From Escherichia phage slur16: DNA of 64,000 bases. Where the stretch lies: the sequence record NC_028248.1; one strand, 5' to 3'. The position numbers and the translations under genes are program-made. Position 1 is the stretch's first letter. The number at the start of each line of letters is the position of its first letter. This document shows, piece after piece, positions 20,319 to 45,607 of the stretch. The notes under the pieces are model-generated. The model did no database searches. It had not been told where the DNA came from and saw only the letters and a program-made list of their open reading frames with translations.

Positions 20319-20637
20319 CGTTTATGTTCGGGCAAGGTCGCTAGTCTTGCCCCGCCATTTTCAGGCAGCTGCATGTCTCCATGCAGACCAGACTATATCT
20401 TATAAGCGACAACAACCGCTTATCCTCCCGTTTCGAATCGCTTGATTCTACGTCTTTCGACTAGTCGTTGAACGTTCATCCTCTCGGATGCTTCGCTGCG
20501 GATTATCTAAATTAACACACTGTTACCATACCTTCGATCTCTCTTCGAAGCCTCTATCATGTTACCATGACAGGTTGGTGGTATTAATAGTAAAGATTTC
20601 CCCGCAATTAGGGAGGTTTTACGAGAGCTACAAATTA
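20319..20637 (-). mobile_element. group I self-splicing intron (ORF-less) in terL
   Basis: Minus-sense conserved elements in order: P AAUUGCGGGGAA (20609-20598), Q AAUCCGCAGC (20504-20495), R GUUCAACGACUAGUC (20473-20459), S AAGAUAUAGUCUGG (20401-20388); no ORF; splits Walker ATPase from nuclease domain. Confidence 0.8.
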
Positions 20638-21063
20638 ACCCTCATCGAAGCAAACCATGGTGTACTCAAGCCCTTGATGGTTAAGCTTATCTTGTACATA
20701 CTCCATGTGGCAGTATTTTACAACAGCTCCCTTTTTGCTTCTATCCCACTTGCCAGTGTTCGGATCAAACCGTGGAAAAATGAACTTATGATCCTTCTCT
20801 CTGAACTTTGGCTTAATGTTTTCAGGCAGATCACTATAAATAGCTACCGCTTTAGGCCATAGTCCACCCTCACCTTCCAACTGCGGGGTTGTTCTTCGGA
20901 ACATAACCACAGAGCTGTGGGGGTCATCAATAATTTTAAGTGGCATCAATTGCAAGAGGAACGACTTGCCAGACCCTGCGGCACCGCCGATTACCAAAAT
21001 ATCTGCATCGTTTTCGAGGATCATCTTCTGCTTTTCAGAACACGGTCCGTAAATCTTAGACAT
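20638..21063 (-). CDS. terL: terminase large subunit, exon 1 (ATPase domain)
   Basis: Walker A GGAAGSGKS and Walker B-like VCFDE; ORF-track stop at 20635 lies in intron sequence. Confidence 0.8.
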
Positions 21064-22412: not shown

Positions 22413-22511
22413 GGTGCTAGGTGATGGAATCGAACCACCTATGTATTCAACGACTACCTCGTCTATTTTCAGGATTAAAAATCCTCGCCCTTGCCAAAGG
22501 GCTTACCTAGC
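22413..22511 (-). tRNA. aberrant tRNA-like gene (possible pseudo-tRNA; Lys-UUU-like anticodon loop but oversized variable region)
   Basis: Perfect 7 bp acceptor GCUAGGU/ACCUAGC, D-arm GCCC-UUUGGCAA-GGGC and T-arm GGUGG-UUCGAUU-CCAUC, but ~47 nt between D- and T-arms; only CC encoded at 3' end. Confidence 0.3.
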
Positions 22512-22609
22512 TCAGTATGTTGACCATGTTGCTAGTCGGCGATGACGACTGTAACATTTGATAATCCGGTTCTGCTTCCGGCTTTCGCTTAATTACAAGG
22601 TCAACAATA

Positions 22610-22700
22610 TGGCTGAGGGTAATGGAATCGAACCATCATCGAGTCATCCTCAACGGGACGGTTTTCAAGACCGCTTGAGCACCATTGCTCCCTACCCTCA
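22610..22700 (-). tRNA. tRNA-Ser (anticodon UGA), type II with long variable arm
   Basis: Anticodon arm GCGGUCUUGAAAACCGU nearly identical to E. coli tRNA-Ser(UGA); T-arm GAUGG-UUCGAUU-CCAUU; discriminator G; CCA encoded; position 1 is U. Confidence 0.8.
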
Positions 22701-22814
22701 TTTATAAACAATACTGATAATGACACTGATTTTCGAGCAGTTAGTGACTAGTATAAACGACGATAAATATCAATGCCATTATCTGTATGATTTATGCATT
22801 TAAAACTATAAATT

Positions 22815-22980: not shown

Positions 22981-23076
22981 ACTGGGTGGCTTTCTTTTAC
23001 ACCTTAGCCGCCAGAAAAGGTGGGAGACCATGTTTACAATATTACACTGTTAAGCAAAGTTTGTCAAGAAAATATT

Positions 23077-44518: not shown

Positions 44519-45607
44519 ATGGCTGTATTTAATGCTGAGAACACCGCTCATAAAACTGGTGACTATCCGCTGTTTCTGGGACAGCAAATGGGTATGTACG
44601 ACTCTATCAACAAAAAATATCCACAACTGTTCGAACTGTACAAAAAACAAAAAGAACAAGACTGGGCAGAGGATGAAGTGGATTTGTCGCAATCTATTTC
44701 AGATTTTGTAACATGCTCCAAGTCAACTTATGATGTGATGGTGCAGACCTTGATGTGGCAATGGGAGGCTGATAGCGTTGCGGCAAGATCGATCATCTGC
44801 CTCTTTTCACCATTCATCACTAATAGTGAGCTTTTCACTCTATTGATGAAACAGTCAGAGATTGAAGTTCTTCACGCACTAACTTACTCAGAGATTGTTA
44901 GACAATGCCTCCCCAATGCCCGTGAGATTATAGAAGAGATTCAGGAAAACCAAAACGTTCTGAGCAGATCTGGCGTTATTGTCAAATACATGCAAGAGCT
45001 TGAGGTTATTGGTGCAAAATACCGACTGGATCCTTCTAGTGTTGAAGAGGATATTGTGCGGAAATGCATTCTTAGAGCGCTTTTTGCACTTTTAGCCCTG
45101 GAAAGTATTGAGTTTATTGCAAGTTTTGCATGCACTTTCGCAGTAGCTGAACAGGGTATTTTTGTTCAGGTGGCGCAGCTTGTTCAAAAAATCATGCTTG
45201 ACGAAATGCTACATTCGAAAGGTGATTTTGCCATCATTGATATCCTGCTTAATGATCCGGCATGGGAGAAAAGCTTCCTTGAGATAAAAGGGGAGTTAAA
45301 AGAGATTCTTGATGAAGTACGAACCAAAGAGTACGGTTGGAGTGACTATATTTTCAGCGAAGGAAGAGCGATTATAGGTCTTAACTCACCGTTGCTTAAA
45401 GAATGGGTTGACTATAACTGCTCACCGATTTATGATTACTACGGCATCGACAAAGACTTTGTGCCGCCAACAAAGGACCCTCTACCGTTTATGCAGGTGT
45501 GGATGAAACCTTCATTGCAACAGACGGCGAACCAAGAAATGTCGAACACTGACTACCGCGTCAACACAACTGTTAATGACGCTGAAGAAGAAATTTGGGA
45601 GTTTTAA
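44519..45607 (+). CDS. nrdB: ribonucleotide reductase class Ia small subunit
   Basis: Di-iron ferritin-like helices; start at ATG 44519 (AGAGG RBS), ORF-track extension overlaps nrdA. Confidence 0.85.
   Translation: MAVFNAENTAHKTGDYPLFLGQQMGMYDSINKKYPQLFELYKKQKEQDWAEDEVDLSQSISDFVTCSKSTYDVMVQTLMWQWEADSVAARSIICLFSPFITNSELFTLLMKQSEIEVLHALTYSEIVRQCLPNAREIIEEIQENQNVLSRSGVIVKYMQELEVIGAKYRLDPSSVEEDIVRKCILRALFALLALESIEFIASFACTFAVAEQGIFVQVAQLVQKIMLDEMLHSKGDFAIIDILLNDPAWEKSFLEIKGELKEILDEVRTKEYGWSDYIFSEGRAIIGLNSPLLKEWVDYNCSPIYDYYGIDKDFVPPTKDPLPFMQVWMKPSLQQTANQEMSNTDYRVNTTVNDAEEEIWEF

Follow-up and report, generated by a model that had tools for sequence, protein, structure and literature searches.

What is the 99 nucleotide (nt) gene that lies on the minus strand at 22413–22511 in the transfer RNA (tRNA) gene cluster of Escherichia phage slur16? 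We analysed it within a 64,000 nt stretch of DNA from this phage (NC_028248.1), here called the window. An earlier reading, made from the letters alone and here called the sequence-only reading, had recognised tRNA arms at an unusual spacing, and offered three options: a decaying tRNA gene, a tRNA with an unusual insertion or a tRNA-like regulatory RNA. Database labels for the element are inconsistent (tRNA-???(atcc), tRNA-Lys, tRNA-OTHER, tRNA-Pseudo and tRNA-TERM), and it is left unannotated in the reference record of rV5. Comparison with related phages indicates that it belongs to a structurally conserved family of tRNA look-alikes that is previously undescribed; a search of the literature returned no description of this RNA, and other family copies are labelled as a suppressor tRNA or a hypothetical protein. 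The third option is the best-fitting of the three, and the comparative evidence makes us confident that the element is a real, selected, structured tRNA-like RNA.

The source of the window is an rV5-like phage (Vequintavirus), and its 1.4 kb tRNA region is 100% identical to that of Escherichia phage slur12 and 98.6% identical to that of rV5. All genes of the cluster are on the minus strand, and in the order of transcription they are tRNA-Arg(UCU), tRNA-Tyr(GUA), tRNA-Ser(UGA), a 98 nt spacer, the element, tRNA-Thr(UGU), tRNA-Met(CAU) and tRNA-Pro(UGG). Only 6 nt separate the element from the downstream tRNA-Thr gene. The parts of the element are listed here in the 5' to 3' order of the RNA.

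22413..22511, minus strand: whole tRNA-like RNA gene, 99 nt including the discriminator A and CC; RNA position 1 is 22511, and the stretch that identifies its sequence is GCTAGGTAAGCCC...
22505..22511, minus strand: 5' strand of the acceptor stem, GCUAGGU (RNA positions 1–7), partner of 22416–22422
22487..22504, minus strand: A8 and A9 followed by the D-arm, GCCC-UUUGGCAA-GGGC; G19 is the second G of the D-loop
22471..22486, minus strand: G26 and hairpin A, the anticodon-arm equivalent, AGGAU-UUUUA-AUCCU
22463..22470, minus strand: linker 1, GAAAAUAG, defined from alignments A2 and A3
22450..22462, minus strand: hairpin B, the variable-arm equivalent, ACGA-GGUAG-UCGU, defined with RNAfold
22440..22449, minus strand: linker 2, UGAAUACAUA, in which AUACAUA abuts the T stem on its 5' side
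22423..22439, minus strand: T-arm, GGUGG-UUCGAUU-CCAUC, with C56 in the loop
22413..22422, minus strand: 3' strand of the acceptor stem, ACCUAGC, then discriminator A73 and CC; the final A is not encoded and UUUUUU comes next

Much of this layout had been seen before. Read on the minus strand, the 7 base pair (bp) acceptor stem, the D-arm and the canonical T-arm are all present, and the reported D-to-T distance of 47 nt is exact, as the D stem ends at position 25 of the RNA and the T stem begins at position 73. Hairpin A can indeed be drawn in more than one way, as 4 bp with a UUUUUAA loop, 5 bp with UUUUA or 6 bp with UUU, and the gene does encode A-CC-U, without CCA, at its 3' end. Hairpin B was absent from the earlier description. 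ARAGORN calls a gene at exactly 22413–22511, the coordinates already proposed, and labels it ‘tRNA-???’ (atcc). The four-base anticodon ‘atcc’ is rejected: it is an artefact that arises when the fold is forced, and the bases concerned form the 3' strand of hairpin A and covary as a stem. The Rfam tRNA model (RF00005) gives the window copy 35.5 bits against a gathering score of 29 (E = 9.5e-4 window-wide), in an alignment that places a 27 nt insertion in the variable region and draws a 7 nt loop, UUUUUAA. The family's own covariance model, R1, gives the same copy 104.1 bits (E 1.6e-23).

R1 gathered 41 copies of full length, which include 28 distinct ones, and more than 250 INPHARED records carry the family. 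Diverged copies were found with BLAST and pattern scans in TH18-type phages of E. coli, in Seunavirus (4MG, GAP31, NINP13076 and EC152), in Mydovirus (Mydo, Ro1 and Klebsiella phage K54lambda1.1.1) and in Henunavirus (Hena1 and pEa_SNUABM_55), and further copies are on metagenomic contigs of 130–150 kb. The phages that carry the element infect Escherichia, Salmonella, Klebsiella, Cronobacter, Enterobacter, Proteus, Raoultella and Erwinia. A scan of 185,579 bacterial and archaeal genomes with the 3' motif gave no matches, and on 80 unrelated viral loci R1 returned only weak matches to ordinary tRNAs, mostly of type II. Two of the collection scans demanded the AUACAUA motif. A further scan, with a motif from the 5' half (GGTARG...TTTGKCAA...CG) and no demand for AUACAUA, returned 92 viral loci, among which R1 found no new members; the known family phages were recovered again, and the loci outside the known family, being R1 negative, were set aside as chance matches. 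So far as the collections searched show, the family appears to be confined to Vequintavirinae-type virulent phages.

The fold is held in common by these copies. In a 16-sequence alignment made with MAFFT, a model of five helices was 98.9% paired, with compensatory changes in 11 of its 22 pairs, and when the 3' partners were slid by 1–3 columns as a control, pairing fell to 33–45%. A model-guided alignment of 29 distinct rows gave 98.6% of cells paired and compensatory changes in 13/22 pairs. By helix, compensatory changes affect 5/7 pairs of the acceptor stem across the family, 3/4 pairs of the D stem (100% paired) and 3/5 pairs of the hairpin A stem (95% paired), and the T stem is 100% paired. 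The family thus has the 7 bp acceptor stem, 4 bp D stem and 5 bp T stem with T-loop of an elongator tRNA, and also its 19:56 elbow pair. This tertiary pair covaries: 19 rows have G19:C56 and nine have U19:A56, with no mismatches, and the D-loop UUUGGCAA is always accompanied by the T-loop UUCGAUU, and the D-loop UUUGUCAA by UUAGAUU. As the pair covaries without a mismatch, the tRNA elbow appears to be under selection.

Between hairpin A and the T stem, the family has a domain of its own. Hairpin B is predicted by RNAfold to form a stem in every member, with sequences and lengths that are unrelated between members. On its two sides, the GAAAA of linker 1, which follows hairpin A, is invariant save for one member with GUAAA, and the AUACAUA of linker 2, which precedes the T stem, does not vary between members (alignments A2 and A3). 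Judged by eye, the linkers could lengthen helix B through non-canonical pairs, with 5'-AAUA opposite 5'-GAAU. Within the rV5 group, all polymorphisms are structure-neutral, being A-U to G-U or G-U to G-C changes or changes in loops.

The departures from an ordinary tRNA lie mainly in hairpin A and in the variable region. Hairpin A has a normal 5 bp stem after G26 and a loop of 4–6 nt in which U33 is not conserved (UUUUA, UUAUA, AUCAA, CAUCCA, CUUCCA, CCUCCA, CCGCCA, CAGCCA, CCUCAA and UGAU), and loop length differs even among close relatives. The last base of the loop is A in 27 of the 28 members, the exception being the one with UGAU. The 7 nt anticodon loop of a tRNA, with U33 and a purine at 37, can be drawn in the rV5 type alone, on a 4 bp stem. 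Every member has A8 and U14 in place of the U8 and A14 that form a reverse-Hoogsteen pair in tRNAs. The variable region, made up of GAAAA, the variable hairpin B and AUACAUA, spans 31–41 nt across the family. A normal tRNA has a variable region of 4–5 nt (type I) or of up to about 24 nt (type II), and to our knowledge a region of 31–41 nt with long single-stranded linkers is larger than that of any known elongator tRNA. None of the seven copies from outside the rV5 type that were compared with the Rfam tRNA model was reported at the gathering threshold (L005, L006, L008, L015, L016, L018 and L020), and ARAGORN missed the element in all four of the other lineages on which it was run (4MG, Mydo, Hena1 and TH18). 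The window copy, which is of the rV5 type, is the most tRNA-like member, and the family as a whole is, on this comparative evidence, not an ordinary tRNA.

Several more specific identities were rejected. The annotation of the Hena1 copy as a suppressor tRNA(UCA) does not hold, as position 33 of its loop is A and not U, and in a sister lineage the loop is closed to 5 nt. A tRNA-Sec (RF01852) has an 8/5 or 9/4 acceptor/T arrangement, a 6 bp D stem, a UCA anticodon and G73; the element has 7/5 and a 4 bp D stem, UCA-like loops occur in two lineages only, both with U73, and Rfam prefers the tRNA model here. No Rfam ribozyme or intron match was found at E ≤ 1 that would place an intron or a self-cleaving ribozyme in the insert, and by eye CUGAAAA does not match the hammerhead core CUGANGA.

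Decay of a tRNA gene was the option that fared worst. Some annotators do write ‘tRNA-Pseudo’ or ‘tRNA-OTHER’, and the element has been deleted from two phages, V18 and O157 typing phage 4. However, the 28 distinct copies come from several genera, at least four of them in the Vequintavirinae, and in them every helix is kept by compensatory changes. Because pairing is maintained, compensatory changes are frequent, the tertiary pair covaries and the linkers are invariant, the element appears to be under purifying selection and not in decay, and the structure-neutral polymorphisms of the rV5 group lead to the same conclusion; we consider a pseudogene effectively ruled out. The suggestion of an unusual insertion stands as a description of the variable region. 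As an explanation it falls short: the element is more than a tRNA with something inserted, because the insert holds the most conserved single-stranded sequence of the molecule and the anticodon-like loop is of 4–6 nt without a conserved U33. In none of the relatives is the slot taken by an ordinary tRNA, and the element has been lost only from V18 and O157 typing phage 4.

Both of the phages that have lost the element are recombination chimeras, in which tRNA-Ser and the structured spacer described below are missing too. In V18 (locus L007, 1452–1543), tRNA-Tyr supplies the 5' part and the element the 3' part of a fused gene, with the junction at hairpin B. In O157 typing phage 4 (locus L254, about 1447–1527), the junction between tRNA-Tyr and the element lies inside their near-identical T-arms, and the two strands of the resulting acceptor stem, GGTGAGT/ACCTAGC, are mismatched. 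Recombination inside the cluster thus seems to use similar T-arms as its sites. As both phages are viable, the RNA appears to be accessory for growth on laboratory hosts, a status that resembles what counter-defence genes often show.

The surroundings of the element suggest how it would be made. One promoter-like sequence was found by a consensus scan upstream of tRNA-Arg, the first gene of the cluster.

23039..23067, minus strand: sigma-70-like promoter, TTGACA-17-TAATAT, with 10/12 matches to the consensus

The rV5 reference annotates the matching site as ‘P(tRNA)’, and the site at 23067–23039 is likely the promoter of the whole cluster, the tRNA-like RNA included. The element is always flanked by tRNAs or other structured modules, with spacers of 2–8 nt, and in TH18, 4MG and NINP13076 the CCA of the preceding tRNA is only 2 nt from G1. 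A spacing of 2 nt resembles that in the dimeric tRNA precursors of T-even phages. The 3' end is U73-CCA in the Seunavirus, Mydovirus and Henunavirus copies, so that most members encode it in full, A73-CC(U) in the rV5 copies, and C73 or U73 followed by ACA in the TH18 type. In the window, the T-arm and acceptor strand together with UUUUUU score as terminator-like.

It would be possible to read these features as those of a structural or processing module that acts only in cis, in the polycistronic tRNA precursor, as an entry site for RNase P or RNase E that frees its neighbours or, in the rV5 types, as a partial terminator through the U-run. The constant position between structured modules, the short spacers and the terminator-like score would suit such a role, and the adjoining structured elements that are not tRNAs need processing too. 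Against this, a spacer would need no covarying 19:56 pair, encoded CCA, invariant linkers or lineage-specific loop, and the U-run is limited to the rV5 types. We regard a purely cis role as very improbable.

Which amino acid, if any, the molecule would be charged with can be asked of its loop triplet, discriminator and first acceptor pairs. The bacterial identity set for Gly is U73, G1-C72, C2-G71, G3-C70, C35 and C36, and that for Lys is A73 and U34–U36 (PMC9976931). The Seunavirus and Mydovirus copies have U73, G1-C72, C2-G71 and a loop that ends in (U/G)CC-A, in which the wobble-like base varies and CC-A is constant. The rV5 copies combine A73 with UUU-A and match the Lys set, and the Henunavirus copies and NINP13076 combine U73 with UCA-A. 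As a means of filling gaps in the phage's own tRNA set, the loop triplet gives a mixed picture. The rV5 type has a UUU loop in a cluster without tRNA-Lys, 4MG has GCC and no canonical tRNA-Gly, and TH18 has UAU and no tRNA-Ile. Mydo, however, has a UCC loop and yet a canonical tRNA-Gly(UCC), and Hena1, with UCA, has tRNAs for Gly, Cys and Trp.

A link to host defence is hinted at by a short motif. The AriB nuclease of PARIS cuts E. coli tRNA-Lys(UUU) at U36AAUC|A41, and UAAUC is common to its other targets, tRNA-Thr and tRNA-Asn (PMC12409363). The same UAAUC is present in hairpin A of the rV5 and TH18 types, which we take as a lead and not as evidence. Phage tRNA-Lys rescues cells from AriB, and a phage tRNA-Thr with a shortened or altered anticodon stem is functional and resistant to P2 Old (PMC12445682).

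Our favoured reading is that the element is a tRNA mimic that is co-transcribed, processed like a tRNA, L-shaped and non-decoding, and we put its probability at about 0.5. The RNA would be transcribed together with the tRNAs of the cluster, cut by RNase P at G1 and then matured at its 3' end like a tRNA, with the CCA of the rV5 type finished by the host enzyme. It would adopt the L-shape and would not decode, because in most lineages the loop cannot make a standard anticodon loop. It would instead offer its acceptor/CCA end, elbow and anticodon-arm look-alike to a tRNA-binding protein, with the fast-changing loop and the discriminator base setting which host tRNA is copied. We suggest, tentatively, a tRNA-targeting nuclease or toxin of host defence as that protein; an aminoacyl-tRNA synthetase would be our second choice.

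A number of observations weigh against this proposal. The rV5 copy can be drawn with a canonical 7 nt loop, UUUUUAA, with U33 and A37, on a 4 bp stem, and it holds the full Lys identity set, so in slur16 the RNA might decode. Matches to identity sets come from only two or three independent lineages, and the TH18 group, with UAU, C73 or U73 and a 3' ACA, fits no identity set. UAAUC is also found in the phage's own tRNA-Thr, and hence is not specific to the tRNA-like RNA. A decoy would need high abundance or tight binding. Mimicry also gives no account of the invariant linkers, and the invariance of AUACAUA is itself partly built in, since two scans demanded that motif.

The same observations can be turned into a case for an unusual working decoder, of Lys(UUU) in the rV5 types and of Gly(NCC) in Seunavirus and Mydovirus, in which a shortened anticodon stem-loop and a bulky variable domain would shield the RNA from anticodon-arm nucleases while it replaces the cleaved host tRNA. 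This is most plausible for the rV5 copy, which scores above the Rfam tRNA threshold with its 7 nt loop aligned, is called tRNA-Lys in several GenBank records and comes from clusters without that tRNA. The absence of canonical tRNA-Gly from 4MG and of tRNA-Ile from TH18, the Gly-like U73, G1-C72, C2-G71 and xCC of the Seunavirus and Mydovirus copies, and the known performance of the short-stemmed tRNA-Thr and of phage tRNA-Lys against nucleases all point the same way. For the family it is harder to sustain: most lineages have loops of 5 or 6 nt without U33, from which no standard anticodon loop can be made, loop length shifts among close relatives, Mydo and Hena1 already have the tRNAs in question, the non-rV5 copies examined were all rejected by Rfam and ARAGORN, and the variable region and its linkers are beyond what we know of elongator tRNAs. 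We therefore think a decoder unlikely, with the rV5 copy its best case.

Charging by a host synthetase for use outside translation would accommodate some of the same data. The RNA would then be a carrier or sink for an amino acid, or a substrate or decoy for enzymes that act on aminoacyl-tRNA, examples being the GNAT toxins that acetylate Gly-tRNA and the aminoacyl-transferases. Non-proteinogenic tRNA-Gly species exist in Staphylococcus. The full acceptor stem, the elbow and the U73-CCA encoded in most members are what charging would use; the discriminator, the first two acceptor pairs and the C35/C36-like loop bases match the Gly set, and a position 34 that varies between U and G beside a constant CC-A is the pattern expected if the identity of the triplet is read. 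The G3-C70 pair of that set is missing, however, as the family has A-U or C-G there, and CCA is not encoded in the rV5 and TH18 copies. A 6 nt loop and a large variable domain may not suit glycyl- or lysyl-tRNA synthetase, and no partner enzyme was identified in these phages. We consider this role improbable.

Two further look-alikes with short loops were seen in the same clusters. That of 4MG (L008, 2763–2832) has a 5 bp anticodon stem and a 6 nt loop, UC-GUC-A, without U33, in a cluster where a canonical tRNA-Asp(GUC) is also present, and it scores 38 bits with the Rfam tRNA model. That of Mydo (L251, 8129–8203) has a 5 bp stem and a 6 nt loop, AC-GAU-A, again without U33, and is labelled tRNA-Ser in GenBank. 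ARAGORN gives both of them 2 nt ‘anticodons’. Short-looped tRNA copies therefore recur in these clusters.

The mimic could be given a more specific function as an RNA-based counter-defence, a decoy that cannot be decoded and that copies the anticodon arm and acceptor identity of the host tRNA under attack. In this form of our favoured reading, E. coli phages would copy tRNA-Lys(UUU) by way of the UAAUC seen by AriB, and phages of Salmonella, Klebsiella and Proteus would copy tRNA-Gly. It would be the GAAAA/AUACAUA domain that traps or blocks the enzyme, the loop would evolve in step with the defences that the host carries, and the short-loop look-alikes of 4MG (GUC-A) and Mydo (GAU-A) would be more decoys. 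In so specific a form we judge it distinctly unlikely.

The 98 nt ‘spacer’ at 22512–22609 on the minus strand, which immediately precedes the tRNA-like RNA, proved to be a structured element, of about 90 nt, that carries no annotation. Its core of approximately 66 nt is nearly invariant (AAUUAAGCGA..CCGGAAGCAGAACCGG..GGCGUCAUCGCCGCC..AGCAA). It is also found in lambda at 44866–44952 (L002, 601–687), between orf-64 and S, in P7 (L003, 801–866) and P1-like plasmids, where it follows a tRNA-Ser(UGA), in the Salmonella siphophage ST1UNAM (L004, 801–868), in 584 of 5,426 complete E. coli genomes, in none of which it is annotated, and in more than 120 IMG/VR contigs. As a 1 nt indel shifts the frame, the spacer element appears to be non-coding. 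Of its two internal hairpins, one shows a compensatory change in the rV5 types. Its closing stem differs wholly with the context yet remains complementary, and in one copy (L161) two flank types are combined as a chimera. No Rfam match was found for it. Because the TH18, Seunavirus, Mydovirus and Henunavirus copies of the tRNA-like RNA lack the spacer element, the two appear to be independent modules. A stem-loop downstream of the lambda copy was considered as a remnant of the tRNA-like RNA and rejected, as R1 was negative on the lambda locus.

Other structured sequences lie in or near these clusters. In NINP13076 (L005, 1606–1790), TH18 (L006, 1601–1797) and 4MG (L008, 1539–1729), a noncoding stretch of approximately 180 nt separates the tRNA-like RNA from the tRNA that follows it. 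The stretch is kept among the Seunavirus and TH18 types and contains tRNA-like fragments, and BLAST shows relatives at about 70% identity in Phapecoctavirus phages; the Mydovirus and Henunavirus types do not conserve it, and it is absent from the window. In P7 (L003, 240–690) and ST1UNAM (L004, 640–1010), noncoding modules closed by stems are arranged in arrays, with repeats that resemble GTGCTCTTWCCGTTGTG and its complement between them. The P7 array includes an 18 bp inverted repeat (CAACGTTGAGAACACTGG...), and one module of the ST1UNAM array has D-arm-like and T-arm-like hairpins without a tRNA call. In the window, tRNA-Ser(UGA) (22610–22701, minus strand) has an apparent U1-A72 start (UGAGGGU/ACCCUCA, with G73-CCA), one base upstream of the start given by ARAGORN; its close relative in P7 has G1-C72. 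A group I intron (RF00028, 84.3 bits) is at 20369–20647 on the minus strand, in the region of the terminase large-subunit gene, whose coding sequence is annotated as three joined pieces in the rV5 reference.

A dedicated covariance model would mend the annotation of the tRNA-like RNA and end false ‘suppressor tRNA’ calls in phages considered for therapy, and the mimic reading is open to direct test in well-studied coliphages such as rV5 and those of the BASEL collection.

Among known RNAs, type II tRNAs (Ser, Leu and Tyr) are nearest by score. The best non-self matches of R1 were tRNA-Tyr (25.2 bits) and tRNA-Ser (23.8 bits) of the window, and they share with the element the 7 bp acceptor stem, the D-arm, a T stem of 5 bp whose loop is of the UUCGAUU type, a variable-region hairpin and a place in a phage tRNA operon. 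The element differs in the size of its variable region, where hairpin B is held by invariant single-stranded linkers of 6–10 nt, in its 4–6 nt loop without a conserved U33 and in the swap to A8/U14. Most members of the family have U73, whereas Ser requires G73 and Leu and Tyr require A73 (PMC9976931); A73 occurs in the rV5 types only, where the loop is UUU and not the GUA of Tyr.

In setting, the closest analogues are rnaC and rnaD of T4 (species 1 and 2), stable RNAs in a phage tRNA cluster that are not tRNAs and are annotated as small stable RNAs. T4 rnaC has a tRNA-type T-arm, CCGGGUUCGAAUCCCGG. At 139 and 119 nt they have another architecture, and we know of no function for either. Homology was rejected, as with filters off the best R1 match was 6.7 bits (E 0.9) on rnaC, with nothing on rnaD. 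The tRNA-like domain of transfer-messenger RNA (tmRNA) and YrlA are examples of a tRNA-like acceptor/T-arm/elbow module in non-decoding use. However, tmRNA lacks the D stem and anticodon arm, and in YrlA the order of the T- and D-arms is permuted (Rfam consensus line), whereas the element keeps the full cloverleaf order; neither gave an Rfam match at 22413–22511 at E ≤ 1.

The comparison that bears most directly on function is with the nuclease-resistant phage tRNAs, namely tRNA-Lys, tRNA-Thr and tRNA-Asn of T5 against AriB of PARIS, a phage tRNA-Thr against P2 Old and a phage tRNA-Tyr against retron-Eco7. Phage tRNA genes have lately been recast as counter-measures to bacterial immunity that cuts or modifies tRNAs. 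Like the element, these tRNAs come from clusters of virulent coliphages, and their anticodon stem-loops differ from those of the host tRNAs; the copy of the rV5 type is linked to them further by its UUU loop, A73 and UAAUC. The cases shown so far are ordinary decoding tRNAs, with 7 nt loops and normal variable regions, that stand in for the damaged host tRNA, whereas the family described here mostly cannot form such a loop. If our reading is correct, a conserved look-alike that has the surfaces by which a tRNA is processed and recognised, but has lost a normal anticodon loop, would represent a different strategy, of mimicry, decoy or non-ribosomal use.

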